Shown: positions 1,211-45,390 of the stretch, in pieces
Layout of the letters: each line of letters starts with the position of its first letter
Position numbering within the stretch: the stretch's first letter is position 1
Source of the DNA: Candidatus Nomurabacteria bacterium
GTDB lineage: Bacteria > Patescibacteriota > Minisyncoccia > Phycocordibacterales > UBA9973
Assembly (NCBI GenBank): GCA_025361085.1
Contig: JANYAX010000001.1
Location: forward strand, 1 to 58,194
Length of the DNA stretch: 58,194 nt
Direction of reading: 5' to 3'
Translations under genes and position numbers: made by a program
Notes under the pieces: generated by a model
The model's input: the letters and a program-made list of their open reading frames with translations, nothing else
The model's database searches: none
What the model was told of the DNA's origin: nothing

Positions 1211-1277
1211 TTTTCTATTATATAGGGGTTTTATATTTTTGTTAATTGTGATATTTTTATTAGAGTGGAATTACATT

Positions 1278-1314: not shown

Positions 1315-1326
1315 GGATTAATTAAT

Positions 1327-2280: not shown

Positions 2281-2296
2281 TATTCTTAATAAGGTA

Positions 2297-2974: not shown

Positions 2975-2981
2975 TACGCCT

Positions 2982-3905
2982 ATGTTTTTTACTAAATTAA
3001 AAAGAATAATAGTTTCAGGTTATCGTAATTTCTCACGTAGTGGTTTCACTTCCGTAGCCAGCATTCTAGTCATGACGATAACTCTCTTTGTCGTAATCTC
3101 GCTTATTTTTACTCAAGCGGCACTCAATTCATCTCTCAATGATATAAAAGAAAAGGTTGATGTGACTGTTTATTTTGTTTCAGACGCACCAGAAGCTTCG
3201 ATAATGGATGTCAAAGAGGCTCTCAAGAAATTACCAGAAGTCAAAGAGATTACTTACACTTCTCAAGATGAAGCTCTGACAAAATTCAAAGAAAAACATT
3301 CCAACGATTATCTTACTCTTCAAGCTCTCGATGAATTAGGATCAAATCCACTTGGAGCATCTCTCAGTATTAAAGCAGAAGATCCCTCGCAATATGAAAG
3401 TATTTCAAAATATTTTGATAATGAATCCAATCTTTCAAGAGGTGATTTAACAATTATCGATAAAGTAGATTATAGTCAAAATAAAGTTGTCATTGACAAG
3501 CTTACCTCGATTATAAATGGTGCCAAAGAACTTGGTTTTGCCATTTCGCTTATACTAGTTATTATTTCAATATTAATTACATTCAATACGATTCGCCTTA
3601 TCATTTATATGTCACGTGAAGAAATAAGTGTCATGAAGTTAGTCGGAGCCGGTGGCCGATTCATCCGTGGACCATTCATCGTTTCAGGTGTATTGGTCGG
3701 AATTCTGGCCGCTCTTCTTACCACCGTATTGTTATTTCCCGTGTCTATCTGGCTTGGAAATAGGATGACAGATTTTGTTGGGATTAATCTTTACACATAT
3801 TATAAATCAAATTTCTTTCAGTTATTTATTATCATGCTAGGGTCTGGTGTAATAATTGGAAGTATATCCAGTATTTTTGCCATTCACCGTTATCTAAGAA
3901 AGTAA
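2982..3905 (+). CDS. ftsX: Cell-division permease-like protein FtsX
   Basis: N-terminal TM, extracytoplasmic domain, three C-terminal TMs; lies immediately after ftsE; ATG 2982. Confidence 0.85.
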   Translation: MFFTKLKRIIVSGYRNFSRSGFTSVASILVMTITLFVVISLIFTQAALNSSLNDIKEKVDVTVYFVSDAPEASIMDVKEALKKLPEVKEITYTSQDEALTKFKEKHSNDYLTLQALDELGSNPLGASLSIKAEDPSQYESISKYFDNESNLSRGDLTIIDKVDYSQNKVVIDKLTSIINGAKELGFAISLILVIISILITFNTIRLIIYMSREEISVMKLVGAGGRFIRGPFIVSGVLVGILAALLTTVLLFPVSIWLGNRMTDFVGINLYTYYKSNFFQLFIIMLGSGVIIGSISSIFAIHRYLRK

Positions 3906-26504: not shown

Positions 26505-27038
26505 ATGAATATGAAAAAAGAAACTAAAAAAACTACAAAAAAAGAGACAGAAGTGAAATACAAAAGACCATCTTGGGATGAATATTTTATGGATATTGTT
26601 CACGCTGTAGGTGCTCGAGCTACTTGTGACAGGGGGCGTACAGGGGCGGTTCTAGTCAAAGACAAGCACCTTATATCGACTGGCTACGTTGGGGCTCCAG
26701 CAGGGTGCAAAAGTTGTGATGATATAGGGCACGAAATGCATACCGTCACTCATGAGGATGGAACTATATCTAGGCACTGTATACGAACAAGTCACAATGA
26801 AGAGAATGCCATTGCTCAAGCAGCTAGAATGGGTATAAGCACAGAAGGGGCAACTTTATATTGTATGATGACTCCATGTTATACTTGTGCCAAGCTTTTA
26901 ATAAATGCTGGGATCAAAAGAGTCGTCGCCGAGAAGGACTACCACGCGGGAGCTCGTAGTAAAGAAATTTTTAAAGAAGCTAAAGTCAAATACGAATTAT
27001 TAAATAAAGATATGGTGACATATAAAGATATGAAATAA
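26505..27038 (+). CDS. dCMP deaminase (ComEB-like)
   Basis: HNEENAI (HxE) and PCYTCAKLL (PCxxC) zinc motifs. Confidence 0.85.
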   Translation: MNMKKETKKTTKKETEVKYKRPSWDEYFMDIVHAVGARATCDRGRTGAVLVKDKHLISTGYVGAPAGCKSCDDIGHEMHTVTHEDGTISRHCIRTSHNEENAIAQAARMGISTEGATLYCMMTPCYTCAKLLINAGIKRVVAEKDYHAGARSKEIFKEAKVKYELLNKDMVTYKDMK

Positions 27039-27042
27039 TCTT

Positions 27043-27594
27043 ATGAATAAAATAATCATCGGGCTCGTGGGAACTTTAGCCAGTGGAAAAGAAACAATAA
27101 AAAAATACTTAGTTGAAAAATATGAAGCGAAGGACTGTAAATTCTCGTCGAGTTTACGTGATGTTCTAGACAGATTGTCTTTGTCGGTAAGTCGTGGAAA
27201 TCTGCAGAAAATTTCAACAGTTTTGCGTGAGGCCTTTGGGGAGAATTTGTTGGCAAAAACTATTGCTTCAGATGCTTCCAAGTTAGATTCTAAGATTGTT
27301 GTTATCGATGGGGTTAGAAGGTTTACTGATCTAGAAAATTTGAATCAATTACCAAACTTTATATTGGTTAAAGTTGATGCAGATCCAAAGATCAGATATG
27401 AGAGAATGAAAATACGTAATGAAAACGAAGGAGATGATCAAAAAACATATGAAGAATTTTTGGCTGATCATGAGAAAGAAGCAGACAGACAAATACATGA
27501 TGTAATGAAGTCCGCTAAATATGAAATAGAAAATTCTGGGAACCTAGAAAATTTATATAAGCAAATAGATGAGATATTGGTTAAATTAAATTAA
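27043..27594 (+). CDS. P-loop nucleotide/nucleoside kinase-like protein
   Basis: Walker A GLVGTLASGKET; size and context suggest a (d)NMP kinase or CoaE-like fold. Confidence 0.55.
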   Translation: MNKIIIGLVGTLASGKETIKKYLVEKYEAKDCKFSSSLRDVLDRLSLSVSRGNLQKISTVLREAFGENLLAKTIASDASKLDSKIVVIDGVRRFTDLENLNQLPNFILVKVDADPKIRYERMKIRNENEGDDQKTYEEFLADHEKEADRQIHDVMKSAKYEIENSGNLENLYKQIDEILVKLN

Positions 27595-27646
27595 CAAAAA
27601 ATCCCCAATTTGATCCGTACCCTATAAAGTAGACTCAAAATAAAAG

Positions 27647-28189
27647 TCACTTTTGGGAGGCTAAAAGATGATTTCTGTATTCTACAAACGACATCCCGTA
27701 CATATTTTTCTCGTCTGATTCGTGTTTTTCTTCAGAGATTTTTTGCCATTTAGTCATATCAATAGTAGGGAAGAAAGTGTCAGCGTCTGGGACTTCTACA
27801 TCAACGTGTGTGATATAAAGCTTGTCGGCTAGATCAATAAATAATTTGTATATTTGCCCGCCACCAATCACGAAACATTCGCTATCTTCTTTTTCTGTTT
27901 GTTTCAATAAGTTTATTAATTCATCGACAGAATAGACAATTTCTATGCCTTCTCTTTTAAAAGTTTCATCTTTAGTTAAAACTATATTTCTACGGTTTGG
28001 AAGTGGTCGGCCGGGTTCACCATTTGGCCCAGTTCCTAACGATTCAAACGTTTTTTGCCCCATTATTACCGTGTGACCGCTTGTTGTTTTGCGGAAGTGT
28101 TGCATATCAAGTGGCAAATCCCAAAGAAGCGCATTCTTCCTTCCAATTTCATTATTTTTCCCAATGGCCGATATTATTGATAGAATCAT
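27647..28189 (-). CDS. folA: Dihydrofolate reductase
   Basis: IGRKNALLWDLPLDMQHFRKTTSGHTVIMGQKTFESLG is the typical DHFR N-terminus. Confidence 0.85.
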   Translation of the reverse strand: MILSIISAIGKNNEIGRKNALLWDLPLDMQHFRKTTSGHTVIMGQKTFESLGTGPNGEPGRPLPNRRNIVLTKDETFKREGIEIVYSVDELINLLKQTEKEDSECFVIGGGQIYKLFIDLADKLYITHVDVEVPDADTFFPTIDMTKWQKISEEKHESDEKNMYGMSFVEYRNHLLASQK

Positions 28190-28206
28190 AGTTTTTTATA
28201 AATGAA

Positions 28207-28278
28207 GCAGGATTGTTAAAATTTTTATCCGTGTCGGAGCCCTTTAGGGTAAAGCGGGAAAAATTTTAATAATTCTGC
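28207..28278 (-). ncRNA. Long-stem hairpin element, copy 1 (between thyA and folA)
   Basis: Stem of about 20 bp (18 of 20 paired) around the core CCCGCUUUACCC-UAAA-GGGCUCCGACACGG in the sense of the flanking genes; related to 47904-47979 and 33559-33596. Confidence 0.6.
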
Positions 28279-28287
28279 GAAATTTAT

Positions 28288-29160
28288 CTATATAGCTATC
28301 TCAAAAGGAATTTTGTCATAGCTTTGATAATTTAATAATTTTGTATCTTCAGACTTCCAATCGAAAATTGATTTCCATTCAGATGTCTCAATAGCAGGGA
28401 GAGGGAATTTGTTTGGGTCTCGAGTTAGTTGCTCACGTGCACCATCTACATGATTTTCATATATGTGAACATCTGCCAAAAATCCAACAAGTTTTCCTTC
28501 TTTTAATCCCGATTCTTTGGCGAGCAAGTGAAGAAGAATTGCATAACTTGCAATGTTGAATGGGAGGCCGAGCATCGTATCGACAGAGCGCTGGTTCCAC
28601 AACAAATTTAATTTATTATCTATGACAGTAATCTGAAAAGAATAGTGGCAAGGAGGCAATGCCATTTCACTGAACTGTTGCGGGTTCCAGGCGCTGACGA
28701 TCATTCTTCTGTCTCTTGGGTTTGTTTTAAGTGTCTCAACTAATTTTTTTATTTGATCAATTCCAAGTCCATTATAATCAGTATTAAAATCTTTATAAGG
28801 AGCGTTGAAGTGACGCCATTGAAAACCATAAATCGGTCCGAGATCTCTTTCTTCCAGCATTTTCTTTTTCGACTCTTCGTCGTGACCATATGGGGCGAGT
28901 TGTGGTTTGGCCCATTCATCCCAGATGTGATTGTTTTTATCCTGCAACCATTTCTTGTCAGTAATTCCTTTTATAAAAAATTCTAATTCAGACGCGACTA
29001 ATTTGAATGGCGTTTTCTTTGTTGTCAAAAGCGGAAATCCTTTCGACATATCATGTTCAAACATTGCCCCAGCTATTGTGTAAGCTTTCACACCCGTTCT
29101 TGTATTAACCAATTTACCTTCTTCTAATATTTTTTTAACTATATCTAAATATGCTCTCAT
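28288..29160 (-). CDS. thyA: Thymidylate synthase (ThyA type)
   Basis: RRMIVSAWNP and active-site LPPCHYSFQ motifs; ATG 29160 (MRAYLDIVKK) chosen. Confidence 0.9.
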   Translation of the reverse strand: MRAYLDIVKKILEEGKLVNTRTGVKAYTIAGAMFEHDMSKGFPLLTTKKTPFKLVASELEFFIKGITDKKWLQDKNNHIWDEWAKPQLAPYGHDEESKKKMLEERDLGPIYGFQWRHFNAPYKDFNTDYNGLGIDQIKKLVETLKTNPRDRRMIVSAWNPQQFSEMALPPCHYSFQITVIDNKLNLLWNQRSVDTMLGLPFNIASYAILLHLLAKESGLKEGKLVGFLADVHIYENHVDGAREQLTRDPNKFPLPAIETSEWKSIFDWKSEDTKLLNYQSYDKIPFEIAI

Positions 29161-29281
29161 ACTCTCTATTATACCCAGAAGTAAAGTTATTTCAAAACTT
29201 ACTACTGGATATGCTCTTTTTTGATTTTTTTCCAAACGTGGTAAAATCAACCTATTACAAACTAAAAACCACTAAATTAAC

Positions 29282-30520
29282 ATGCAAGACAAACAAGTAG
29301 AAAAGCTCATAAAGGCCGAAGAAAAAAGACAAAAAAGTGTTATAAACCTTATCGCTTCTGAGAACTATGTTTCAAACGATGTTTTAAAGGCTCTTGGTTC
29401 AAAACTAACCAATAAATACGCTGAAGGTTATCCAGGTCGCCGATATTATGGTGGAAATGAAATTATAGATAAGGTAGAAACTCTTGCGATGGCTCGTGCT
29501 CTAAAACTTTTCAAACTCAAAGGAGATGGCCCATTCGCTTCGAAAGCTCATGACCAAATATCTAAAGATATTTGGCATGTAAATGTTCAGCTTCTCTCGG
29601 GTTCGCCAGCCAATTTTGCTCTATATTCAGCTCTTGTGCCGATTGGCGGAAAAATTATGGGTATGAAGCTTACTGCTGGTGGTCACTTGACTCACGGGCA
29701 CCCTCTCTCAATGACAGGTAAACTTTGGAAACCATTACAATTCGAACTTGATCCTAAAACTGAAATGATAGATTACGATGCTCTCAAAAAATTAGCAATT
29801 GCAGAAAAGCCAGATATTATAGTTTGTGGATTCACAGCTTACCCAAGAGTTGTTGATTTTAAAAAGTTTAGAGAAATCGCCGATGCGGTAGTTTACCCTG
29901 ATGGAAGAAAAGGCGCAATTCTTCATGTCGACATGTCTCACTTTGCGGGGCTTGTTGCTGGTGGGGCATACCCATCTCCATTTCCATTTGCTGATTCTGT
30001 TATGAGCACAACTCACAAATCTCTCCGTGGTCCAAGACAAGCGATCCTTTGGGTAAAGAAAGATGAAAGAGGTTTTGATAAAAAATTAGATAAGATGGTA
30101 ATACCTGGGTTATTCGGTGGGCCACACGAGAACAACATCGCTGGAGTTGCGATTGCTCTAAAAGAAGCGATGAAGCCAGAGTTCAAAAAATGGGCTAAAC
30201 AAGTTGTGAAGAATGCAAAAACTTTAGCCAAAGAATTACAAAAACTCGGTTGGCATATTATTTCTGGTGGTACAGATTCTCATTTGATATTGATGGATAC
30301 ATGGATGGATGGAAAGGGAATATCTGGCAAAGAGGCAAGTATAAAACTAGAGAAAGCCGGAATCATTGTAAATATGAATACAATCCCTGGCGACACTCGC
30401 TCAGTCATGGACCCATCCGGAATTCGCCTCGGCACTTGTGCCGAAACCACTCGAGGTAAAAAAGAAAAAGATATGATAGTTATTGCCAAGAAGATGGATA
30501 AAGCCCTAAGAGGAAAATAA
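29282..30520 (+). CDS. glyA: Serine hydroxymethyltransferase
   Basis: NVQLLSGSPAN and PLP-lysine TTHKSLRGPR motifs. Confidence 0.9.
   Translation: MQDKQVEKLIKAEEKRQKSVINLIASENYVSNDVLKALGSKLTNKYAEGYPGRRYYGGNEIIDKVETLAMARALKLFKLKGDGPFASKAHDQISKDIWHVNVQLLSGSPANFALYSALVPIGGKIMGMKLTAGGHLTHGHPLSMTGKLWKPLQFELDPKTEMIDYDALKKLAIAEKPDIIVCGFTAYPRVVDFKKFREIADAVVYPDGRKGAILHVDMSHFAGLVAGGAYPSPFPFADSVMSTTHKSLRGPRQAILWVKKDERGFDKKLDKMVIPGLFGGPHENNIAGVAIALKEAMKPEFKKWAKQVVKNAKTLAKELQKLGWHIISGGTDSHLILMDTWMDGKGISGKEASIKLEKAGIIVNMNTIPGDTRSVMDPSGIRLGTCAETTRGKKEKDMIVIAKKMDKALRGK
29528..29555 (+). repeat. In-frame G+C-rich patch in glyA related to the metG element at 46115-46152
   Basis: GGCCCATTCGCTTCGAAAGCTCATGACC versus GGCCCTTCGCTGATGCTCAGGACC; encodes GPFASKAHD. 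Confidence 0.6.
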
Positions 30521-30521
30521 A

Positions 30522-31241
30522 ATGACAAAGAATAAAAAAGAAAAATGCAAAGGAAAACTTATTGTGATTGATGGGACAGATGGTAGTGGGAAAGCCACAC
30601 AAGTCGAGCTTTTAGCGAAGACCCTGAGGAACGAAGGGTTGAAGGTAAAAGTTGTAGATTTCCCAGAGTATTATAAGAATTTCTTTGGGCAATTTATTGG
30701 GCACTGCCTTTCTGAGCAATATTATAATTGGCTCAATATTCATCCAAAGATTGCTTCAGTTATGTATGCTGCTGATAGGTGGGAGTCGAGTGAAGAGATG
30801 AGAAAATGGTTGGATGAGGGTTATATTGTTATTGCAAATCGTTATGTGTCAGCTAATCAAATCCATCAAGGGGGTAAGATTATGAGTGCCAAGAAGAGGA
30901 ACGATTTTTTGAAATGGCTAAACCAAATGGAATATGAGGTTTTTAAAATTCCAAGACCCGATCTGACTTTGTATTTGAGTTTACCTATCGATTTAGTCCT
31001 CAAACTTTTGAAAGATCGAGATAGTAAAATGAAAAGAGAATATTTAAAAAAGAAAAAGGATGTTCACGAAGCGGACGTGAATCATTTAATAAATTCTCGC
31101 AAAAGTGCACTCAAGCTTGTTAAAGAGATCCAGAATTTTATAAAAATTGAATGCTCAGAAAAAGGTGCAATGCTGTCACGTGAAGATATTCACAAAAAGG
31201 TGTATAAAGAAGTTAAAAAAATTATTAAGAAAATAATTTAA
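30522..31241 (+). CDS. tmk: Thymidylate kinase
   Basis: P-loop VIDGTDGSGKATQ. Confidence 0.85.
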   Translation: MTKNKKEKCKGKLIVIDGTDGSGKATQVELLAKTLRNEGLKVKVVDFPEYYKNFFGQFIGHCLSEQYYNWLNIHPKIASVMYAADRWESSEEMRKWLDEGYIVIANRYVSANQIHQGGKIMSAKKRNDFLKWLNQMEYEVFKIPRPDLTLYLSLPIDLVLKLLKDRDSKMKREYLKKKKDVHEADVNHLINSRKSALKLVKEIQNFIKIECSEKGAMLSREDIHKKVYKEVKKIIKKII

Positions 31242-31250
31242 TATTTTATT

Positions 31251-31676
31251 ATGAAAGTAGAGATCAAAAGGATAGATAAATCATTGTCATTACCCGAATA
31301 CCATACGTCTGGAGCTGTAGCTTTTGACTTATATTCAAGGTTTGATGGTATCGTTGCTCCCAAAGCATTAGAAAGATTTCCAACAAATATAATTGTTAAA
31401 ATTCCTGATGGTTATATGCTTGAGATTAAGGATCGTTCCAGTACACTAAAACGAAAAGGGCTTTTGGTAAGTACTGGCTATATAGATAATGATTTTCATG
31501 GAGAGAATGATGAAATTTTGCTCCAGGTATATAATTTGACTGATAATGATGTTAAAATAGAAAAAGGGGAACGTTTAGGCCAAGGTGTTTTTATTAAGGT
31601 AGAAAAGGCAGAATGGGAAGAAGTAGAAAAAATGAAAGAAGTATTTCGTAGTGGTTTTGGTTCAACAGGATATTAA
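31251..31676 (+). CDS. dut: dUTP diphosphatase
   Basis: GYIDNDFHGE and C-terminal RSGFGSTGY motifs. Confidence 0.85.
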   Translation: MKVEIKRIDKSLSLPEYHTSGAVAFDLYSRFDGIVAPKALERFPTNIIVKIPDGYMLEIKDRSSTLKRKGLLVSTGYIDNDFHGENDEILLQVYNLTDNDVKIEKGERLGQGVFIKVEKAEWEEVEKMKEVFRSGFGSTGY

Positions 31677-31677
31677 T

Positions 31678-33522
31678 ATGAAAGAACAAATAGAAAATTT
31701 AATAAAAGAAACTTTAAAAAATCTTGGGATTCCTGCCTGCGCAGGCAGGGAAGATTGTGATTTTTCTGTTGAACATCCTGATGATTTTAATAATGGTGAT
31801 TATTCGACGAATGTGGCGATGGTGAGTGCCAAAAGTTTAAAAACAAATCCAAAAGAATTAGCGGAAAAGATTGTTATAACCCTTCGGCAAGCTCAGGGTG
31901 AATTTCCTGGAATACAGGAAATTCAGATTGCGGGGCCTGGGTTTATAAATTTTTATTTATCTCGAAATTTTTTTACAGAAAGTATAAATAAAATTTTGAA
32001 GGAAGGAGAAAATTGGGGGAAAAATAATTCATCTCTTGGTAAAAAAATAATGGTTGAGTATACCGACCCGAACCCTTTTAAGCCATTTCACATCGGGCAC
32101 TTAATGACGAATGCAATAGGAGAATCGATTTCTCGTATTGTTGAATTCTCTGGAGCTAAAACTGTCAGGGCAAATTATCAGGGCGATATTGGGCCACATG
32201 TAGCTAAAGCGATATATGGTCTTATGAAATTTGGCATGCCTGATGAATTAAAATTAACCGCGGAAAAAGCAGAATATATTGGTGAATGTTATTCGAAAGG
32301 AAGTAATTTATATGATACTGATGAGAATGTTAAAAAAGAAATTGATGAGATAAATAAGAAGATTTATGATAAATCAGATGTTGAGATAAACAAAATTTAT
32401 GATTGGGGGCGAAAAGTAACTCTCGATGCTTTTGAAGAAATATACAAAATTCTTGGAACGAAATTCAATCATTATTTTTTTGAAAGCGAGATGGCGCCTA
32501 TTGGAGAGGAGATTGTTCGCGCAAATGTTATGGCCGAAGGTCCCGAGAGTAACCGAGGGATATTTGAAGATTCAAATGGCGCAATAATTTTCCATGGTGA
32601 GAATTATGACAAGAAACTTCACACACGAGTGTTTATCAATTCACAAGGCCTTCCAACATATGAGACAAAAGAAATTGGTCTCACAATGACTAAATTTGAA
32701 AAAGAAAATCCCGATCTTTCTATTGTTATCACTGCCACAGAGCAAGCCGAATATATGAAAGTAGTTCAGAAAGCTATTTCGTTACTTCACCCAGATTTAG
32801 AGAGTAGAATGAAGCATATTACTCACGGTATGATGCGCTTCGCTTCTGGTAAAATGTCGTCTAGAAAAGGGAATGTAGTCACAGGTGAATCACTTTTGCG
32901 TGATTCGATGGATGTAGTTTATGAAAAAGTTAAAGATCGTGATTTAGAAAATGGAGAAAAAAAGAAAATTGCCGAAGTAGTTGGAGTATCTGCTCTCAAA
33001 TATTCAATTCTAAGGTCGTCTATTGGTAGTGATATTATTTACGATTTTGAAAAATCTATTTCTTTTGATGGTGATTCTGGTCCATATTTACAATACACTG
33101 CAGTCCGAGCAAATTCGATACTCGATAAAGCAAAAGATTTTAAAACCCCCTCGGCTGTTGGCCACTCCTTACAGGAGCAGTACACTTCTCACGTTTTGAA
33201 TACAAAACATTCAAAGTCTTGCGCTTCGGATCCCATCCCGAAGCTCACCCCCTTATCAGGGGGAGAAGTAAATTCTCTTGAAAAATTAATTTATCAATTC
33301 GAAGAAATTGTTGAGTACTCATATGAGAGGCTAGAACCGCATCATATAGCGGTTTATCTTACCGAACTCGCAAGTAGTTTCAATACTTTTTATGGTAATA
33401 CAAAAATTCTTGATGATGGAAACAAAAATATAGCTTATCACTTAGATCTAGTAAAAGCATTTTACCAAACAATGAAAAACGGCCTCTGGCTCTTGGGTAT
33501 TGAAGTTCCAGAGAAAATGTAA
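31678..33522 (+). CDS. argS: Arginine--tRNA ligase
   Basis: PNPFKPFHIGHLMTNAIGE (HIGH) and C-terminal YLTELASSFNTFY; ATG 31678 is adjacent to the dut stop. Confidence 0.9.
   Translation: MKEQIENLIKETLKNLGIPACAGREDCDFSVEHPDDFNNGDYSTNVAMVSAKSLKTNPKELAEKIVITLRQAQGEFPGIQEIQIAGPGFINFYLSRNFFTESINKILKEGENWGKNNSSLGKKIMVEYTDPNPFKPFHIGHLMTNAIGESISRIVEFSGAKTVRANYQGDIGPHVAKAIYGLMKFGMPDELKLTAEKAEYIGECYSKGSNLYDTDENVKKEIDEINKKIYDKSDVEINKIYDWGRKVTLDAFEEIYKILGTKFNHYFFESEMAPIGEEIVRANVMAEGPESNRGIFEDSNGAIIFHGENYDKKLHTRVFINSQGLPTYETKEIGLTMTKFEKENPDLSIVITATEQAEYMKVVQKAISLLHPDLESRMKHITHGMMRFASGKMSSRKGNVVTGESLLRDSMDVVYEKVKDRDLENGEKKKIAEVVGVSALKYSILRSSIGSDIIYDFEKSISFDGDSGPYLQYTAVRANSILDKAKDFKTPSAVGHSLQEQYTSHVLNTKHSKSCASDPIPKLTPLSGGEVNSLEKLIYQFEEIVEYSYERLEPHHIAVYLTELASSFNTFYGNTKILDDGNKNIAYHLDLVKAFYQTMKNGLWLLGIEVPEKM
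31732..31749. repeat. Perfect 18-nt palindrome CCTGCCTGCGCAGGCAGG inside argS
   Basis: Self-complementary; read as PACAGR; near-identical copies at 34891-34908 and 47553-47570. Confidence 0.9.
33145..33267 (+). repeat. Composite G+C-rich insertion of about 120 nt in the argS C-terminal region
   Basis: Four successive hairpins (CTCCT-TAC-AGGAG, GTTTTG-AATA-CAAAAC, CTTCGG-N8-CCGAAG, CCCCC-TTATCA-GGGGG); its ends match the metG element at 46537-46576. Confidence 0.8.
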
Positions 33523-33937: not shown

Positions 33938-36900
33938 ATGGAAGAAAACAAAAAATCACAATCTGCGCTTCGAGAAGAATCAGTTTTACAGTTCTGGAAA
34001 GAAAATGATACTTTCAAGAAAAGTCTCGAGAAAGAATCACCAAAGGGTGAGTATGTTTTCTATGAAGGTCCACCAACTGCCAACGGCAAACCAGGCATTC
34101 ACCATCTAGAGGCACGAGCATTCAAAGATGCAATTCCAAGATATAAAACAATGCGAGGGTATCATGTTCGCCGAAAAGGGGGTTGGGATACGCACGGTCT
34201 TCCTGTGGAATTGCAAGTTGAGAAAAAATTGGGTCTTGCTTCGAAGAAAGCAATTGAAGAATATGGAATTGCAAAATTCAATCAAGAATGCAAAGAAAGC
34301 GTTTGGGAATACACCGATCTCTGGGAGAAATTTACTGACCGCATCGGTTACTGGGTAGACCAGAAGAATGCATATGTAACTTATCACAACGATTATATTG
34401 AATCTGTTTGGAATGTTATCAAAGAAGCCGACAAACAGAAATTACTTTATAAAGATTATAAAGTTGTTCCATGGTGCCCACGTTGTGGGACCGGGCTTTC
34501 TTCGCACGAGCTAGCGCAGGGGTATGTGGATGTGAAAGATTTGTCGGTGTATGCAAAATTTCGACTTGTGCAACAAGTCGTCCCGAGCGAAGTCGAGGGA
34601 AAAAGTCTTTCAATAGGTTATGATACATATATTCTTGCTTGGACAACAACCCCTTGGACACTCCCTGGTAATGTGGCTTTGGCTGTTGGTGAAGATATTG
34701 ATTATGTAAAAATAGAAATTTCATCAGACCTCACCCTTGCTAAGGGGGAGGAGAAGATGGGGGTATTTTTAATTCTTGCAAAATCTCGTCTTTCTGTAAT
34801 AGAAGGCGAGTATAAGACTGTTGAAGAATTTAAAGGTAAAGATTTAATCGGTTTAGAATACGAACCTCTTTACCCTTATCTCTCAAATATCCTGGCTGCG
34901 CAGGCAGGAATTTCTGATCTTGAAAAACAAAAACTCGATAAAGCGTTCAAGGTTTACGGCGCAGATTTTGTGACGACCGAAGATGGTACTGGTGTTGTGC
35001 ACACTGCGGTGATGTATGGAGTAGATGACTTTGTGTTGGGAAATAAAATTGGTTTGCCAAAACATCACATGGTTGGGCTTGATGGAAAGTTCCTAGAAGG
35101 GACCGATTTCTTAGAAGGGAGATTTGTTCGTGACGAAGATGTGGCGGTAGATATAATAAAAGATTTAGCACATCGTGGCCTTCTGTTTAAAAAAGAAAAA
35201 TACGAACACTCATACCCACATTGTTGGCGCTGTAAAACAGCTCTCATTTATTATGCTCGCGATTCTTGGTATATCAGGATGTCGTCTCTTCGCGATAAAA
35301 TGGTAGAAGAAAATGAAAGTATAAATTGGGAACCATCATATATCAAAGACGGGCGTTTTGGTGAATGGCTCAAAGACATAAAAGATTGGGCAATTTCTCG
35401 TGAACGTTACTGGGGTACACCTCTTCCTGTTTGGAGTTGTAATGAATGTAAAAAATATGAAGTTATTGGAAGTTTGGAAGATATAAAATCAAAAACCAAA
35501 AAATCTGGAAATAAATATTTCATAATGCGTCATGGAGTATCGGAAGCTAATATTTGTGATAAGGTGAGTTGCAATGTTAATGATGTTGACCATCTTACCG
35601 AAGAAGGGAAAAAACAAGTTCTAAATTCCATAGAAGATTTAAAAAATAAAAAAATTAATTTAATAATTTCGTCTGATTTTATAAGAACGAAAGAAACAGC
35701 AGAAATTATTAAAGATACGTTAAACATTAAAGAAGAAGATTATATTTTTGAGAAAAGAATAAGAGAATTAAATGTTGGAGTTTTTGATGGGAAAACATGG
35801 AGTGAATATTATGGTTCTCGCGAAGAAAAAGATTGGTACTCTTATAAACCGCAAAGTGGTGAATCATGCAAGGAAGTCAAATTTAGAATGACTAGCTTTT
35901 TGTATGAATTAGAACAAAAATATAAAGATAAAAATATTCTAATCGTTACCCACGAAGGACCAGCTAGAATGTTATTAGCGGGAATACTTGGATTAGATGA
36001 CAAAGAGACAGAAGAACAACTAGAAAATAAAATTCCGCACTTAGAAAATGCTAGTGTAACAGAACTTGATTTTATCCCTCTACCTCACAACGAAAATTAC
36101 GAACTTGATTTTCATAAACCATATATCGATGAGGTTGAATTAAATTGTCAGTGTGGTGGAAAGTTAGAAAGAACAAAAGAAGTGATGGATGTCTGGCTTG
36201 ATTCAGGGACGATGCCGTTTTCGCAAGATCATTATCCTTTCGATTTCCTTCCACAAAAGTCAGGACAAGTCGCGGAGGGCAGGCCATTCGAAAACAAACA
36301 ATTACCTTATCCCGCAGATTTTATCTGTGAAGCGATGGACCAGACTCGTGGATGGTTCTATACCTTGCACGCCGTTGGAATGATAATGGGTAAGGGCAAA
36401 GCCTACAAAAACGTGATTTGTCTGGGTCTTCTTCTTGATGCCCAAGGAAAGAAAATGTCTAAGTCGCTTGGTAATATCGTCGACCCTTGGGAGATGATGC
36501 ACAAATATGGAGCCGATACTATTCGTCTGTGGATGTATTCGGTCAATCAGCCCGGTGACCCAAAGAGTTTCGATGAGAAAGTTGTTTCTGAATTACACAA
36601 TAAAGTTTTCAATTTGCTTTATAACGTTCTCGCTTTCTATGAACTCTATCGTGACCCTTCATTAGAAACTAAAACATATAAATTAGAATCTGATTCGAAT
36701 ATATTAGATCAGTGGATAATTGCACGTCTCTCTGAACTTACAGAAAATATGACCAAGCAACTTGACGGCTACAAACTTCTCGAACCTATCCGCGCGATTC
36801 GAGATTTCATTGATGATCTTTCGACTTGGTATTTGAGACGATCAAGAGATCGTATAAAAAATAATGATCAAGAAGCAAAAATCACAATGTACTATGTTTT

Positions 36901-37579
36901 GAAAACACTAGTCAAACTCATGGCTCCATTTGCGCCTTTCGCAGCCGAAGATATTTGGCAGAGATTAAAAAATAATCGTGTTTCAACAGACGAGACACGA
37001 CATGATTTCGCTAAATCAGAGGTAGAAAGTGTGCATTTAGCAGATTGGCCTGAGTTACCTCTATTGGGTCTCCTTCATACAAAGGGCGAAGGGAAATATA
37101 AGGTTTTGGAAGAAATGCAACAAGTTAGAAAAATTGTTACTCTTGGGTTGCAAGCAAGACAAAAAGCTGGAATTCCAGTAAGACAACCGCTTTCGGATTT
37201 GAGTCTAAAAAATTATGAATTAGATAAAGAATATACAAAAATAATTAAAGAAGAATTAAATATTAAGATTGTCATGACAAATAGTGCAATGACAGATGAG
37301 GTAGTTATAAACACCAACATAGATCCGAAATTAAAACGTGAAGGGCAGTATCGAGAACTCGTGAGAGCAATACAAGATATTCGTAAAAAGAACGGGCTTA
37401 ATCCAAGTGACATAGTTACTATTGTTGCTGATACAAATTCAAAAGGGCAAGAATTGGTAAATGAATTCAAAACCGAGCTCATGAAAGCAGTTAGTGCCAA
37501 AGATATACAGATGAAAGAAAACAGTGGAGAAGAAATGAAAATCGGAGAATTTTCATTTAAAATTTTAATCGAAAAATAA
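33938..37579 (+). CDS. ileS: Isoleucine--tRNA ligase with a nested histidine-phosphatase domain
   Basis: PPTANGKPGIHH (HIGH), WTTTPWTLPGN (editing domain), KMSKSLGN; 1213 aa. Confidence 0.95.
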   Translation: MEENKKSQSALREESVLQFWKENDTFKKSLEKESPKGEYVFYEGPPTANGKPGIHHLEARAFKDAIPRYKTMRGYHVRRKGGWDTHGLPVELQVEKKLGLASKKAIEEYGIAKFNQECKESVWEYTDLWEKFTDRIGYWVDQKNAYVTYHNDYIESVWNVIKEADKQKLLYKDYKVVPWCPRCGTGLSSHELAQGYVDVKDLSVYAKFRLVQQVVPSEVEGKSLSIGYDTYILAWTTTPWTLPGNVALAVGEDIDYVKIEISSDLTLAKGEEKMGVFLILAKSRLSVIEGEYKTVEEFKGKDLIGLEYEPLYPYLSNILAAQAGISDLEKQKLDKAFKVYGADFVTTEDGTGVVHTAVMYGVDDFVLGNKIGLPKHHMVGLDGKFLEGTDFLEGRFVRDEDVAVDIIKDLAHRGLLFKKEKYEHSYPHCWRCKTALIYYARDSWYIRMSSLRDKMVEENESINWEPSYIKDGRFGEWLKDIKDWAISRERYWGTPLPVWSCNECKKYEVIGSLEDIKSKTKKSGNKYFIMRHGVSEANICDKVSCNVNDVDHLTEEGKKQVLNSIEDLKNKKINLIISSDFIRTKETAEIIKDTLNIKEEDYIFEKRIRELNVGVFDGKTWSEYYGSREEKDWYSYKPQSGESCKEVKFRMTSFLYELEQKYKDKNILIVTHEGPARMLLAGILGLDDKETEEQLENKIPHLENASVTELDFIPLPHNENYELDFHKPYIDEVELNCQCGGKLERTKEVMDVWLDSGTMPFSQDHYPFDFLPQKSGQVAEGRPFENKQLPYPADFICEAMDQTRGWFYTLHAVGMIMGKGKAYKNVICLGLLLDAQGKKMSKSLGNIVDPWEMMHKYGADTIRLWMYSVNQPGDPKSFDEKVVSELHNKVFNLLYNVLAFYELYRDPSLETKTYKLESDSNILDQWIIARLSELTENMTKQLDGYKLLEPIRAIRDFIDDLSTWYLRRSRDRIKNNDQEAKITMYYVLKTLVKLMAPFAPFAAEDIWQRLKNNRVSTDETRHDFAKSEVESVHLADWPELPLLGLLHTKGEGKYKVLEEMQQVRKIVTLGLQARQKAGIPVRQPLSDLSLKNYELDKEYTKIIKEELNIKIVMTNSAMTDEVVINTNIDPKLKREGQYRELVRAIQDIRKKNGLNPSDIVTIVADTNSKGQELVNEFKTELMKAVSAKDIQMKENSGEEMKIGEFSFKILIEK
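34730..34750 (+). repeat. In-frame C/G-run hairpin in ileS
   Basis: CTCACCCTT-GCT-AAGGGGGAG, same type as 46557-46576 and 33244-33265; encodes LTLAKGE. Confidence 0.6.
34891..34908. repeat. 18-nt palindrome copy (CCTGGCTGCGCAGGCAGG) inside ileS
   Basis: 17 of 18 nt identical to 31732-31749; read in a different frame (LAAQAG). Confidence 0.85.
35500..36073 (+). other. Histidine phosphatase (PGAM-like) domain nested in IleRS
   Basis: FIMRHGVSEAN (RHG at 35528-35536), SSDFIRTKETA, RELNVGVFDGKTW and IVTHEGPARML, in the canonical order and spacing. Confidence 0.8.
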
Positions 37580-37580
37580 A

Positions 37581-38117
37581 ATGGAAACAAGATTTGAAAA
37601 AGAATTAGAATCATTTAAAAAACTTGGATTCTTAAATCATCTTAATCTCTCAGAAGAAGAGGGTTTATTACGACCCGTGACTTACAATGCCCGAGCGGTT
37701 GTATTGTTAAAAAATAATAAAATAATTCTAATAAAAGCAGAAAATGGGGGATATCATTCTATTGTTGGGGGAGGAATAGAAGAGAATGAGACGATTGAGG
37801 AAGCTTTGATTAGAGAAGTTAAAGAAGAATCCGGGTATGATATTTCTATTCTTTGTAAAATTGGATATTTGGAATATTGGACTAAAAAATATAGAAAATT
37901 TGATTTTTGTTTTTTAGTCCAAGCTATCGGAGAAGCTTCTCCTCTTAGCTTAACCGAACAAGAACTTAATTTTGGGCATGAAATCCTTGAGTTAGATATT
38001 AACGATGCCTTAAAGGTATTAAAAAACGATGCAAAAGATCAAAGCAAAGTAGTCTCTATCAGATCTCTTATCCAACTAGGAGAAGCTCAAAAATGTTTAG
38101 AGAATATGGTAAAATAA
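37581..38117 (+). CDS. NUDIX hydrolase
   Basis: Nudix box GGGIEENETIEEALIREVKEESGY. Confidence 0.8.
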   Translation: METRFEKELESFKKLGFLNHLNLSEEEGLLRPVTYNARAVVLLKNNKIILIKAENGGYHSIVGGGIEENETIEEALIREVKEESGYDISILCKIGYLEYWTKKYRKFDFCFLVQAIGEASPLSLTEQELNFGHEILELDINDALKVLKNDAKDQSKVVSIRSLIQLGEAQKCLENMVK

Positions 38118-38121
38118 GAGT

Positions 38122-38517
38122 ATGAAAACAATTTTAATTGATGCAGCGGATTGCTTTATTATTGAACAAGAGGGTGGTTTTGTGGTTTTTAAAGACATGT
38201 ATAATTTATTAGAAACATATCCTAACAGAAAAATTATATTAACTGGTGCTAATGATGAGCAAGCTATTAAATTTGGGTTAGATAAAGTGCCTTATGAAGT
38301 TTTTACCCTTAAGCATAATCCAGAAAAAACGGATCCAAGATACTATGAAATACTTTTAGAAAAGTTTGGATTGAAAAAAGATGAAGTTGTCTATTCTGAA
38401 CATAATATAAATGCAGTCAAGAGTGCACAATCTGTTGGAATTAATACTTACTATTATGATAATGACAAAAAAGACATAGATTCATTAAAAAATTTTTTAG
38501 ATGAGAATTTAAATTAG
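38122..38517 (+). CDS. HAD-like fold protein with degenerate catalytic motifs
   Basis: ILIDAADC replaces DxDxT and SEHN replaces the DD motif; otherwise the HAD-IA layout. Confidence 0.5.
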   Translation: MKTILIDAADCFIIEQEGGFVVFKDMYNLLETYPNRKIILTGANDEQAIKFGLDKVPYEVFTLKHNPEKTDPRYYEILLEKFGLKKDEVVYSEHNINAVKSAQSVGINTYYYDNDKKDIDSLKNFLDENLN

Positions 38518-38549: not shown

Positions 38550-39134
38550 ATGCATCACATTTATCACACTCATGGATTTATACTTTCGTCGCGCAATATG
38601 GGCGAGGCGAATAAGATGCTCGCGATTTATACGCGAGAGATGGGTTTGGTGTGGGCGGCGGCACAAGGGGTGAGACTTCACAAATCAAAACTTCGTTTCA
38701 CTTTGCAAGATTTTTCTTATGTAAATGTTGATCTGGTTCGCGGTAAAGAATTGTGGCGCGTAACTTCAGCTCGACATGTTTCATCTTTTCCATTTGCAAG
38801 AAGTAATGCGAGCTCATTACTTATGATCACCAGAGTTAGTAAATTACTCGAACGACTTTGCCGTGGTGAAAGTCCCAGTGAAAGTATCTTCGATGATTAT
38901 ATTCAGGCACTTTATTTACTAGATGATGATAATATTTCTCCCGAATCTAAAGAAGCGCTTGAACTCCATTTAGTTCTTCGAATAATGAATAACTTGGGGT
39001 ATATAGGAGATTCTGATATTCTCTCGAAATATTTATGTTTCTCATTTGATTATAGTAAGACAGAATCACTGCTCAAAGAACGTCAATCTATAATTGCTCA
39101 TATAAATAAAGCCCTGAATGAAAGCCAATTATAA
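38550..39134 (+). CDS. recO: DNA repair protein RecO (short form)
   Basis: N-terminal OB-fold pattern GFILSSRNMGEANKMLAIYTREMGLVWAAAQGVR; no C-terminal zinc finger seen. Confidence 0.6.
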   Translation: MHHIYHTHGFILSSRNMGEANKMLAIYTREMGLVWAAAQGVRLHKSKLRFTLQDFSYVNVDLVRGKELWRVTSARHVSSFPFARSNASSLLMITRVSKLLERLCRGESPSESIFDDYIQALYLLDDDNISPESKEALELHLVLRIMNNLGYIGDSDILSKYLCFSFDYSKTESLLKERQSIIAHINKALNESQL

Positions 39135-41124: not shown

Positions 41125-42423
41125 ATGGAAAAAGAACAAAACAACTTGATGGAAACGATTATCTCACTTGCGAAAAGAAGAGGGTTTGTTTATCAGGGGT
41201 CTGAGGTATATGGTGGGCTTGCTGGAACTTGGGATTATGGTCCGCTCGGAGTTGCCCTCAAAAATAATATTAAAAATCTTTGGTGGAAAAAGTTTGTAGA
41301 TTCTCGCGAAGATATGTATGGTATCGATGCTGCAATTTTAATGAATTCGGCTGTCTGGAAGGCGAGTGGTCACGTCGATACTTTTTCTGACCCGCTTGTT
41401 GAGTGTACGAAATGCCATCATCGTTTTCGCGCCGATCAATTAGAAAAGGCTGGTATTTGCAATGATTGCGGAGGGAAGACTGGAGAATCGAGACAATTCA
41501 ATATGATGTTCAAAACACAAATTGGTGCTGTCGAAGATTCTTCAGCAACTGTTTACCTTCGCCCTGAAACTGCGCAAGGAATGTTTGTGAATTTTAAAAA
41601 TGTTGTTGATTCTTTCCACCCAAAACTTCCTTTTGGTTTAGCTCAGATAGGTAAAGCGTTTCGTAATGAGATAACACCTCGCGATTTTATCTTTCGTGTT
41701 CGAGAATTTGAACAAATGGAAATGGAATTCTTTTTGCGCTCTGAAGATTGGGAAAAGTATTTTGAGTATTGGCGTAATGAAATGCTTTCATGGATCGAAA
41801 TGATCGGAATAGATATGGACAAAGTTCATGAACTAGAAGTCGAAGGAGCTGATCTAGCCCACTATTCAAAACGAACAATCGATTTCGAATTTGATTTTCC
41901 ATTCGGCAGAAGTGAACTTTACGGTTTAGCATATAGAACAGATTTTGATTTAAATAATCATAAGTTGTTTTACCAAGATGAAGGAACAAACACAAAGATT
42001 GTTCCGCATGTTATTGAACCTTCGTTTGGAGTGGATAGAACTTTGCTTGCTTTACTTTTGAGCGCATATAAAGAAGATGGAAGCGGGGAAGAGGCAAGAC
42101 CATACCTCGCATTTAACCCGAGCGTTGCTCCTGTGATTTGCGCAGTGTCGCCACTTTTGAAAAATAAACCAGAGCTTCGTGATTATGCTCATCTTATATA
42201 CAGACAATTAAAAGACGAATTTGGTCGTGTGATGTGGGATGATAATGGTAATATCGGCAAACGTTATCGTCGACAAGATGAGATCGGTACGCCTTGGTGT
42301 ATAGTAATAGATTTCGATACTCTCACCGACAACTCTGTTACAATCCGTGATCGTGATACGGCTAAACAAGAAAGAGTCAAAAAAGAAGATATCGTTGATT
42401 ACATAAAAGATAAAATGAATTAA
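41125..42423 (+). CDS. glyQS: Glycine--tRNA ligase (dimeric class II type)
   Basis: RPETAQGMF, GLAQIGKAFRNEI and FRVREFEQME motifs. Confidence 0.9.
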   Translation: MEKEQNNLMETIISLAKRRGFVYQGSEVYGGLAGTWDYGPLGVALKNNIKNLWWKKFVDSREDMYGIDAAILMNSAVWKASGHVDTFSDPLVECTKCHHRFRADQLEKAGICNDCGGKTGESRQFNMMFKTQIGAVEDSSATVYLRPETAQGMFVNFKNVVDSFHPKLPFGLAQIGKAFRNEITPRDFIFRVREFEQMEMEFFLRSEDWEKYFEYWRNEMLSWIEMIGIDMDKVHELEVEGADLAHYSKRTIDFEFDFPFGRSELYGLAYRTDFDLNNHKLFYQDEGTNTKIVPHVIEPSFGVDRTLLALLLSAYKEDGSGEEARPYLAFNPSVAPVICAVSPLLKNKPELRDYAHLIYRQLKDEFGRVMWDDNGNIGKRYRRQDEIGTPWCIVIDFDTLTDNSVTIRDRDTAKQERVKKEDIVDYIKDKMN

Positions 42424-44321: not shown

Positions 44322-45389
44322 ATGGAGGAAAAACCAAGGAACATGCATATAAGCATCTCAACAAATACTCTCATAAAGATAATTCTTCTGGGGGTTTTGG
44401 TCTTTGCAGTAATTAAATTAATAAATGTGGTTCTTATTATCCTCGTTGCGATAGTGCTCGCTTCATTTGTAGAATCAGGTGTAAAAAAGCTTAAGAAATA
44501 TATAAAGAATAGGTCTGTTGCCGTTTTCCTTATTTATATAGTTGCTCTCATAATAATCGTTACTTTATCATCTATCTTTATGCCAGTGTTCATAGAGGAG
44601 GTGTCTGCACTTGTGACTTCTCTTTCCCAATATATTCCACATGGTAGTATTTTAAATACCTTCCAGCCCGATACGATTTCTGGGGCAAAAGATGTTGTTA
44701 CTAGCTTATCTCACAACGCCTCTCTCGGTGATGTCATCAAAAGTGTTCAATCTTTGATATCAAGTCTTTCTGGTGGTTTCTTGGACATTTTTAATGGAGC
44801 ATTTGGTGGTGTTCTTAACTTTATATTGATTGTAATTATTTCATTTTATCTATCGGTTACTGAAAAGGGGATCGAAAATTTCTTGCGTGTTATTACTCCA
44901 AGAAAAAGTGAAGAATACATAATAGGTCTATGGCAAAGAACAGAACATAAAATCGGTCTGTGGATTCAAGGACAGATGCTTTTGGGTCTTATAATCGGAG
45001 TGTTGGCATACCTTGGGCTTACGATAATCGGAGTTAAATATTCACTGGTCTTGGCAATCATAACTGCTTTCTGTGAACTTGTTCCTTTTGGGATATATCT
45101 TGCCATTATTCCCGTTGTGATATTTAGCTTTCTTGATGGTGGTGTTACAATGGCGGCACTTTCATTTGGTTTGTATTTTATTCTTCATCAATTCGAAAAT
45201 TATTTGATTTATCCTTTGATAATCAAAAAAGTTATAGGCATATCTCCACTTGTTGTCGTACTTTCTATTATTATAGGGATAGAGTTGGCTGGATTTTTTG
45301 GTGTGATTCTTGCGATACCGACAGCTGTCTGTTTATTAGAATTTTTAGATGATCTTGAGAAGAAGAAAGTTCTTGCTCGAGAAACATAA
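44322..45389 (+). CDS. AI-2E (PerM/UPF0118) family transporter
   Basis: Multi-TM protein with the family-typical C-terminal half; start uncertain (TTG 44286 or ATG 44322). Confidence 0.75.
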   Translation: MEEKPRNMHISISTNTLIKIILLGVLVFAVIKLINVVLIILVAIVLASFVESGVKKLKKYIKNRSVAVFLIYIVALIIIVTLSSIFMPVFIEEVSALVTSLSQYIPHGSILNTFQPDTISGAKDVVTSLSHNASLGDVIKSVQSLISSLSGGFLDIFNGAFGGVLNFILIVIISFYLSVTEKGIENFLRVITPRKSEEYIIGLWQRTEHKIGLWIQGQMLLGLIIGVLAYLGLTIIGVKYSLVLAIITAFCELVPFGIYLAIIPVVIFSFLDGGVTMAALSFGLYFILHQFENYLIYPLIIKKVIGISPLVVVLSIIIGIELAGFFGVILAIPTAVCLLEFLDDLEKKKVLARET

Positions 45390-45390
45390 T

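Follow-up and report, generated by a model that had tools for sequence, protein, structure and literature searches.

A histidine phosphatase nested in the isoleucyl-tRNA synthetase of Parcubacteria and its counterpart encoded beside ileS

The ileS gene and its nested phosphatase

The window analysed here, that is, the whole stretch of 58,194 nucleotides (nt) formed by positions 1 to 58,194 of contig JANYAX010000001.1 (assembly GCA_025361085.1, forward strand) of a Candidatus Nomurabacteria bacterium, contains at 33938..37579 on the + strand an ileS gene encoding a type-2 isoleucyl-tRNA synthetase (IleRS) with a histidine phosphatase (HP) nested inside it. The gene is a single open reading frame (ORF) of 1213 amino acids (aa), as a preliminary description made from the DNA sequence had claimed, and was identified by TIGR00392, Pfam and PDB matches. 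The TIGR00392 (ileS) profile scored 844.8 bits, against a cutoff of 621.4, in a match that the insert breaks into two stretches. Pfam recognized tRNA-synt_1 in two pieces (the first at residues 16-523), His_Phos_1, Anticodon_1 and DUF5915.

The chain begins with residues 1-522 of the synthetase (33938..35503, +), which align to residues 13-482 of the Thermus enzyme and comprise the first half of the Rossmann fold, the CP1 (connective peptide 1) editing domain and the second Rossmann half from its beginning to the first cysteine pair. The nested phosphatase follows (residues 523-713, 191 residues; 35504..36076, +), delimited by the Pfam match, by structural models and by alignment columns that are occupied in nested genes only. 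Beyond the distal junction PLPHNENYELDFHKPYIDE (residues 714-732; 36077..36133, +), the remainder of the synthetase (36134..37579, +), identified by Pfam and by its alignment to Thermus 488-821, contains the rest of the catalytic domain with the motifs WLDSG and DQTRGWF, the anticodon-binding domain and the type-2 C-terminal domain.

A profile hidden Markov model (HMM) search, proposed in the preliminary description, placed PF00300 (His_Phos_1) at residues 528-712 with an E value of 1.2e-32 and 113.6 bits, far above the gathering threshold of 21.7, covering positions 2-181 of the 194 in the profile and with the catalytic residues aligned. The motifs that had been read as a full histidine-phosphatase signature in canonical order were all recovered at the expected places in the ORF: MRHG at 530, FIRTKETA at 581, IRELNVG at 608 and IVTHEG at 669, between WSCNEC at 499 and NCQCGG at 736.

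Conservation of these residues was counted in two sets, one of 132 nested plus free-standing phosphatase homologues and one of 62 full-length genes (the window and 61 GTDB relatives). Within R531-H532-G533 (35528..35536, +), the phosphate-binding arginine and the nucleophilic histidine are invariant in 132/132 relatives. The second phosphate-binding arginine, R583 in FIRTKETA (35684..35686, +), is present in 131/132, the general acid/base E610 in IRELNVG (35765..35767, +) is Glu or Asp in 132/132, and the second catalytic histidine, H672 in IVTHEG (35951..35953, +), is found in 132/132. In the full-length set R531, H532, G533, N538, R583, E610 and H672, together with both lysines of KMSKS, are conserved in 62/62. 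By these counts, strict purifying selection acts on the catalytic residues of the phosphatase.

Structure prediction led to the same picture. An AlphaFold2 model of IleRS residues 1-1200, built with 117 homologues, had a mean predicted local distance difference test score (pLDDT) of 80 and a predicted template modelling score (pTM) of 0.66; both folds were predicted in one chain, as the proposed compatibility check had envisaged, and the phosphatase segment was the most confident part (pLDDT ~87-96). Compared with Foldseek to the Priestia megaterium and Thermus IleRS structures, the full-length model gave template modelling (TM) scores of 0.72-0.83, normalised to target length. The insert opens with a strand at 526-531 and closes with one at 707-710, so that its two ends meet at the insertion point. 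Modelled alone, the excised insert reached a pLDDT of 84 and a pTM of 0.85.

The excised model resembles metabolite phosphatases of ~200 aa, namely PspA, Rv2419c, PhoE, the riboflavin-pathway HFP, Entamoeba PSP and CobC (TM 0.73-0.80), with PspA, PhoE and Rv2419c at 0.78-0.80. True phosphoglycerate and bisphosphoglycerate mutases fit it poorly: human bisphosphoglycerate mutase gave a target-normalised TM of ~0.53 and a root mean square deviation above 8 Å. Scores remained below cutoff for the families of cofactor-dependent phosphoglycerate mutase (dPGM), that is, archaeal dPGM (80.8 versus 225), GpmB (62.8 versus 261) and pgm_1 (19 versus 81.7), and likewise for the equivalogs CobC TIGR03162 (89.1 versus 162.9), PspA NF045917 (59.5 versus 350) and SixA TIGR00249 (33.2 versus 74.5). 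Judged by its sequence and predicted fold, the insert is a branch-1 histidine phosphatase of a new subfamily, similar to phosphoglycerate mutase (PGAM) in fold only.

The phosphatase segment has a GC content of 0.297 and a third-codon-position GC content (GC3) of 0.194, against a GC3 of 0.32 for the remainder of ileS. A recent foreign origin was considered for this low GC3 and discarded: the phosphatase segment lies below its IleRS in 71/91 nested genes, so that low GC3 is a general property of the insert and not a mark of recent import.

The insertion site

Alignment to the Thermus structure 1ILE equates residues 12-522 of the window protein with Thermus 13-482 and residues 723-1079 with Thermus 488-821. 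About 200 residues therefore stand where Thermus IleRS has a 5-residue linker, between C461xxC464 and C502xC504. The boundary was set by equating PLP (714-716) with Thermus 483-PLPEP, and the Thermus cysteines were numbered by counting along the alignment. The earlier placement of the insert at 35500-36073 was within 4 nt of these boundaries, and its statement that the Thermus cysteine pairs lie about 40 residues apart was borne out (C464 to C502).

The proximal zinc-knuckle cysteines, C501-x2-C504 (CNEC; 35438..35449, +), align to Thermus C461 and C464 and are kept in 39/62 insert-bearing relatives; the distal ones, C737-x-C739 (CQC; 36146..36154, +), align to C502 and C504 and are kept in 39 and 36 of 62. 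In the Thermus enzyme the four cysteines 461, 464, 502 and 504 bind one zinc. The zinc cysteines are gone in about one third of insert-bearing relatives; the insert is thus independent of the zinc site, since all four are kept in only about 36-39 of 62.

HMM matches, the 1ILE alignment, structure prediction and the relatives all agree with the original proposal, in which the phosphatase forms a loop out of the zinc knuckle and the IleRS is complete in all other parts. The hairpin between the two zinc-knuckle cysteine pairs, in the second Rossmann half, accommodates a whole phosphatase of ~190 aa without linkers. In the nomenclature of class Ia synthetases (PMC11685878) this loop would correspond to CP3.

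The distal junction is conserved among nested forms, with P, H, L, D, H, P, I and D invariant (alignment A2). The preliminary description had taken an exact 12-nt direct repeat to mark this junction. The first copy, GAACTTGATTTT at 36062..36073 (+), encodes ELDF, the last beta-strand of the phosphatase (model strand 707-710); the second, at 36101..36112 (+), encodes the ELDF of the native IleRS motif ELDFHKPYIDE, which aligns to Thermus FDPHRPYVD. The repeat is indeed exact, and the 12-mer occurs exactly twice in the window, at 36062 and 36101, against an expectation of 0.04. It did not hold up as a signature of insertion: among 82 nested junctions it is specific to the window, the longest exact junction repeat elsewhere being 0-10 nt. 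The first ELDF belongs to the phosphatase as its own last strand, since the C-terminus of free-standing phosphatases reads ...ELRELN. An origin of the repeat as a target-site duplication or recombination scar was therefore rejected, the repeat being absent from the other 81 junctions and its halves being of separate protein origin. The repeat is a side effect of encoding two similar four-residue peptides in an AT-rich genome.

The synthetase

The synthetase part closely resembles known type-2 enzymes. Its best PDB matches are Thermus 1ILE (E 1e-222) and P. megaterium IleRS2, type-1 structures scoring far lower, and the type-2 assignment is further supported by the presence of Anticodon_1 and DUF5915 and the lack of a C-terminal zinc-binding domain. 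The cutoffs of the MupA/MupB families NF000257/NF000258 were not reached (703 and 717 versus 1900), nor was that of the GNAT-bearing IleRS family NF040702 (317 versus 1999); the window IleRS has no GNAT domain. By these comparisons it is an ordinary chromosomal type-2 enzyme.

The preliminary description had listed HIGH, editing and KMSKS motifs as all present. This held for the last two. KMSKS lies at residues 839-843 (36452-36466, +), with both lysines invariant in 62/62 relatives, and the CP1 editing motifs WTTTPWTLPGN (235-245) and GTGVVH (350-355) are invariant in close relatives (alignment A3), the Thr-rich WTTTPWT being found in the IleRS part of all 132 relatives. The class I signature is not present as HxGH; it occurs only as the non-canonical variant G-I-H-H (residues 53-56; 34094..34105, +), identified from the sequence and from alignment column counts. 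Among relatives, GXHH tracks a single cluster of IleRS backbones, that of the window. The variant is functional in type-2 IleRS and confers hyper-resistance to mupirocin (Brkic et al., PMC10485003).

An extra segment lies between HYPF and YPADF (DFLPQKSGQVAEGRPF..., residues 763-801; window 36224-36340). It exceeds the consensus of close relatives by ~16 aa, and residues 763-801 have a pLDDT below 50 in the IleRS model.

Occurrence of the nested form

Homologues of the full-length protein were searched in NCBI, JGI, ENA and Logan assemblies. The 120 best matches listed are 63-72% identical and 1138-1317 aa long, and 120/120 contain PF00300 together with the IleRS domains. Their source names are merely isoleucyl-tRNA synthetase or class I tRNA ligase family protein, and one comes from a Nomurabacteria genome of 2015. 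A scan of GTDB, with one genome per species and with a query made of the final 67 residues of the insert and extending through the junction, gave at least 385 confirmed matches; the best 80, looked at closely, were all from metagenome-assembled genomes of the Parcubacteria group. From two GTDB scans together we obtained 90 different nested genes that encode 1000 aa or more in one uninterrupted frame; their median length is 1181 aa, that of insert-less neighbours 968 aa. The survey of relatives suggested earlier thus found the insert in the best 120 homologues and in at least 90 GTDB genes. The nested phosphatase is a clade-wide feature of Parcubacteria, not a peculiarity of the window genome, and has been in public databases since 2015.

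These data bear on the possibility that the gene is an artefact, two genes joined by misassembly or a frameshift, or a selfish element, that is, an intein-like mobile insertion without host function. There is a superficial resemblance to homing elements: free-standing and nested copies exist, one site in an essential gene is preferred, several backbones are occupied and tandem copies occur. More than 200 independent assemblies have one uninterrupted frame through the insert, and the recurrence of uninterrupted nested genes over many genomes excludes misassembly or frameshift as a general explanation. Pfam detected no Hint, intein or endonuclease domain in the window IleRS, and the phosphatase fold accounts for the entire insert. 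The residue after the conserved PHN is Glu in the window and Glu, Gln, Lys or Asp in relatives, never Cys, Ser or Thr, and the strict purifying selection on the catalytic residues speaks against a selfish element. On this evidence, frame continuity, the missing Hint and endonuclease domains and the complete phosphatase fold essentially refute an intein or a misassembly, and we hold this explanation as a whole to be extremely improbable.

Individual records deviate. In two of them (L009 27-550 and L058 3570-4141) the phosphatase region of a nested gene lies in two adjacent frames, through a frameshift or as a pseudogene. Parcubacteria-type genes also occur under the labels Spirochaetia, Binatia, Burkholderiales or Saccharibacteria (L064, L149, P0150 and many 'Candidatus Saccharibacteria' third-party annotation records); such mismatched taxon labels seem likely to reflect mis-binning or default naming.

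The free-standing counterpart

The closest free-standing relatives of the insert are ~40% identical to it and 186-200 aa long ('MKLNNKYYILRHGEA...ELRELN*'). On two metagenomic contigs the gene for such a phosphatase lies between argS and an insert-less ileS. A GTDB scan with free-standing phosphatases, together with those two contigs, provided 82 loci. At 43/82 loci, with the order argS-HP-ileS-recO, the phosphatase gene directly adjoins the beginning of an ileS that lacks the insert; at a further 5 it is separated from ileS by 0.6-2.1 kb of unrelated genes. At 31/82 loci the phosphatase is nested in ileS, and at 3/82 no ileS lies within the available stretch. An upstream and a nested copy together were found at 0/162 loci.

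The window order, argS-ileS(HP)-recO, has the same synteny as the split loci. The argS gene (31651..33522, +), recognized by its Pfam ArgRS domains and by synteny, is the conserved upstream neighbour, and it is between argS and ileS that the phosphatase gene lies in split-form relatives. The conserved downstream neighbour, recO (38550..39134, +; Pfam RecO_N and RecO_C), follows ileS in 57/80 loci. The phosphatase constitutes a dedicated subfamily which in Parcubacteria is always partnered with ileS, nested in it or encoded by an abutting gene, never both.

Evolution of the pairing

To analyse the history of this pairing, neighbour-joining trees, which have short internal branches, were built with 60 bootstraps, the phosphatase tree being rooted with 11 other histidine phosphatases. 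The ileS-linked phosphatases of both forms grouped in one clade, apart from the other histidine phosphatases, in 58/60 bootstraps. The IleRS cores (868 aligned columns) fell into five clusters at ~50% identity, one of them only 40% identical to the rest, and nested and split architectures both occur in each of the five. Neither architecture was monophyletic in the IleRS or the phosphatase tree (0/60 bootstraps). A single insertion event dividing nested from split lineages is thus unsupported, as far as neighbour-joining goes.

The two partners have different histories. In the locus pairs L081/L083 and L103/L109 the phosphatase genes are 75-78% identical and the adjoining IleRS genes 41-42% identical. 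The pair L114/L116 shows the same discord; over the three pairs the phosphatases are 75-78% and the neighbouring ileS genes 41-52% identical. Three different types of IleRS backbone harbour nested members of a single phosphatase subclade, which has a junction motif of its own. From these identities and neighbour-joining trees we draw just two conclusions: within Parcubacteria ileS has been replaced repeatedly by divergent versions while its phosphatase partner stayed, and the nested state arose, or was transferred, at least twice, each time at the same loop.

The alternative to a selected partnership is that the phosphatase is a housekeeping enzyme unrelated to translation, for instance a phosphatase of phosphoserine, sugar phosphates or nucleotides or a small phosphoglycerate mutase, that shares the ileS operon, the nested form being a neutral fusion of neighbours at the only insert-tolerant loop. 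Its neighbours by fold and by HMM are all metabolic enzymes, Parcubacteria have compact genomes with tight operons, the phosphatase segment lies below the synthetase in GC3 and in conservation, and the zinc ligands around the insert are dispensable. The move from neighbouring gene to internal loop is, however, no simple read-through fusion, and yet the nested form occupies one and the same site on three or more widely divergent backbones. Moreover, the adjacency outlasts the replacement of ileS, the nested and split forms are strictly exclusive, the subfamily is monophyletic and ileS-linked, and extra copies pile up on IleRS and a ValRS-like enzyme (below), not elsewhere. We therefore regard such hitch-hiking as quite unlikely.

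Multi-copy and other variants

A profile search of 1.84 billion cluster representatives detected 286 proteins at E <= 1e-30, mostly of ~190 aa or ~1150-1200 aa, or fragments. Among them are IleRS with two phosphatases. In P0310, P0257 and P0349 the two stand in tandem at the zinc-knuckle site; in P0231 and P0308 (1419 aa; P0231 at L167 1932-6191) one occupies that site and the second lies between the catalytic and the anticodon-binding domains. A valyl-tRNA synthetase (ValRS)-like protein, P0213 (PPPNVTGNLHLGHA, DWCISRQIWWGHRIPVWY; L165/L166, gene 366-3851), carries four phosphatase copies, of which a single one precedes DWCISRQ and a tandem array of three follows RIPVWY; it rests on low-coverage 3.9-kb contigs from two ENA assemblies, possibly of the same sample. 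Three complete copies of P0213 keep all catalytic motifs, and the fourth has RHG and the second Arg and is cut before the second His. With that exception all copies in these proteins keep RH[G/A], Arg and His, and they are mutually just 30-36% identical. No ValRS with a phosphatase insert was found in GTDB genomes, where the search gave ordinary ValRS alone.

Two further proteins combine the nested phosphatase with other domains. In P0327, an IleRS of 1066 aa, the phosphatase occupies its usual site, an IS200-like Y1 transposase domain lies within the editing-domain region and HFPFEN is followed by a GNAT domain; the chain ends at the GNAT domain and may be truncated. This GNAT domain is nested in the loop that corresponds to residues 763-801 of the window protein, which may be a second insertion hot spot. 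P0184 (1317 aa), a nested IleRS 66% identical to that of the window, has an added C-terminal HD-domain phosphohydrolase (PF01966), as a fusion or through a missed stop codon.

The arrangement of these copies matters for a reading in which the phosphatase repairs tRNA ends, removing a 2'/3'-phosphate or a 3'-pyrophosphate from the 3' end of tRNA-Ile so that repair is coupled to charging. CP1, itself nested in the Rossmann fold of IleRS, acts on a tRNA 3' end that swings between sites, which offers a precedent. The same loop is used on very different IleRS backbones with a conserved distal junction motif, and a similar domain is nested in the ValRS-like enzyme. Some toxins pyrophosphorylate the CCA end of tRNA, and they can be tRNA-specific, FaRel2 picking tRNA-Gly and tRNA-Thr (10.1101/2021.04.30.441581, PMC11559606). 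Two copies in IleRS, four in the ValRS-like fragment and a site beside the anticodon-binding domain clash, however, with one precise geometry. The nearest folds are metabolite phosphatases, and an activity limited to tRNA-Ile would leave general tRNA damage unrescued. Activity on RNA ends is not known from any member of the histidine-phosphatase superfamily. Taken together, a repair function of this kind seems unlikely.

Function

Taken together, the integrity of the domains and the conservation, exclusivity and persistence of the pairing suggest that the product of the gene is probably both a functional type-2 IleRS and a phosphatase, and that the partnership with ileS is under selection. The synthetase keeps all its own catalytic, editing and anticodon-binding parts and the phosphatase its full catalytic set, so that one chain carries two intact machineries. 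H532 would take the phosphate as phosphohistidine, with R531, N538 and R583 holding it, E610 would serve as acid/base and H672 as the second catalytic histidine. A phosphomonoester would be hydrolysed by a domain tethered to IleRS or co-produced 1:1 with it. The nested and split forms would be functionally equivalent, the pairing itself being what selection keeps.

As to the substrate, a small phosphorylated metabolite or nucleotide, and not a protein, is favoured because the closest folds are metabolite phosphatases of ~200 aa; we judge the chances of this to be about even. It also looks as if selection has acted on phosphatase capacity, not geometry, given the two copies in IleRS, the four in one ValRS-like fragment and the several sites. 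A bolder possibility, in our view unlikely, is that the phosphatase is a third catalytic centre acting on the 3' end of tRNA-Ile or on a product or intermediate of the IleRS reaction. The phosphatase as a substitute for lost editing was considered and dropped; it is not a stand-in for that activity, since the editing motif WTTTPWT is intact in 132/132 relatives.

Several points weigh against a selected partnership of two active enzymes. No NCBIfam equivalog that would name a substrate was reached, and no pathway clue was found in the gene neighbourhood at the loci compared. Conserved adjacency could reflect inherited operon structure only, and the single insertion loop could be just the sole permissive site. 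To our knowledge, every other bacterium manages with IleRS alone. The argument from fold neighbours to a small substrate is weak, as superfamily members that act on proteins have the same core. Finally, in the closest partial relative of the insert (P0001, a 223-aa fragment, 69% identical) a Tyr replaces H672 (IVTYEG). This may be an inactive variant or a sequencing error; Tyr occurs at that position in none of the 132 GTDB genes.

The superfamily does include protein phosphatases, SixA, PGAM5 and Sts-1, and the domain might dephosphorylate IleRS or a partner, for instance undoing inhibition by a HipA-like toxin kinase. Kinase toxins target GluRS and TrpRS, and an attack on the IleRS of this clade is suggested by how often ileS has been replaced and by the GXHH variant. 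The SixA score is nevertheless far under its cutoff (33.2 versus 74.5, as above), the best folds include no protein phosphatase and no conserved kinase was found near the loci examined, which makes this reading very improbable.

Relation to known enzymes

The window enzyme shares with the IleRS2 of T. thermophilus (1ILE) and P. megaterium (8C8U/8C8W) its domain order, class I motifs, CP1, zinc knuckle and type-2 C-terminal domains; it differs from them in GXHH and in 191 extra residues that form a second enzyme in place of the 5-residue linker. The insert has the fold, the size (~190-210 aa) and the catalytic order of the small branch-1 phosphatases PspA (4IJ5), PhoE/YhfR (1H2E), Rv2419c (glucosyl-3-phosphoglycerate phosphatase) and CobC. 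Unlike them, it is nested in another enzyme and belongs to a separate, ileS-linked clade, at 22-28% identity. The bifunctional RNase H/acid phosphatase (Rv2228c type, NF005567) likewise joins a branch-1 phosphatase to a nucleic-acid enzyme, its phosphatase part matching with E 6e-21, but there the fusion is end to end and the partner enzyme another one; the window protein scores 75 against a cutoff of 326. An extra catalytic domain looped out of the synthetase core is also seen in CP1, which differs in being universal and of known substrate, and in the IleRS with an N-acetyltransferase domain (NF040702). The GNAT-bearing P0327 has its phosphatase at the same site as the window IleRS.

Full-text literature searches found no description of a synthetase with a nested phosphatase, in line with the preliminary description, which knew of no synthetase with a PGAM-like insert; nor is a phosphatase mentioned in the text or in one supplementary file of a 2026 preprint on the domain architectures of 96,219 IleRS. 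The sequences and their Pfam hits are already public, and both component families are well known. As far as can be told, what is new is the recognition of the nested enzyme, of its split-operon counterpart, of the persistence of the pairing and of the multi-copy variants.

Synthetases are among the best-studied enzymes, and catalytic modules nested in their cores are, editing domains aside, almost unknown. A functional link between phosphate-ester hydrolysis and Ile-tRNA synthesis, which we argue for because in a large lineage of uncultured bacteria the tie survives both gene replacement and a change of architecture, is not predicted by current knowledge. The database names 'isoleucine-tRNA ligase' and 'class I tRNA ligase family protein' hide a second, predicted activity, and metabolic reconstructions of Parcubacteria genomes may list the free-standing phosphatase under 'phosphoglycerate mutase'. 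Together the split and nested forms provide a natural experiment on the conversion of an adjacent gene into an internal domain. If the phosphatase were a third catalytic centre, aminoacylation in Parcubacteria would have a built-in repair or clearance step known in no other organism, and the class Ia synthetases of this group would be platforms for nested modules, namely a GNAT acetyltransferase and phosphatases, the latter in one, two or four copies at as many as three sites.

Neighbouring genes and minor observations

In the window, a Nudix hydrolase gene begins 2 nt past the ileS stop and is followed by a small HAD-like gene before recO (37581-38517). Both were considered as functional partners and rejected, each occurring in 1/80 related loci; the pair is a variable islet outside the phosphatase-IleRS system. 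The genes between phosphatase and ileS at the five split loci were likewise discarded as a third partner: they are unrelated (Fic, a pyridoxal-phosphate enzyme, a RelE-like pair, HAD and CYTH). In one genome each, the Fic-domain gene (L085 5334-6464) and the RelE/antitoxin-like pair (L108 5178-5661) separate a free-standing phosphatase gene from ileS, and small accessory genes seem to be tolerated in the argS-ileS-recO region.

We also dropped the idea that basic free-standing phosphatases bind tRNA by charge, as a high isoelectric point follows phylogeny rather than architecture and nested members of the same subclade are equally basic. A tight gene cluster for pyrimidine and one-carbon metabolism lies directly upstream of argS (26505-31676), with dCMP deaminase, dihydrofolate reductase and ThyA (minus strand), serine hydroxymethyltransferase, thymidylate kinase and dUTPase. 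No phosphatase is inserted in the methionyl-tRNA synthetase (45349-46875) or in a class II synthetase (41125-42423) encoded elsewhere in the window.

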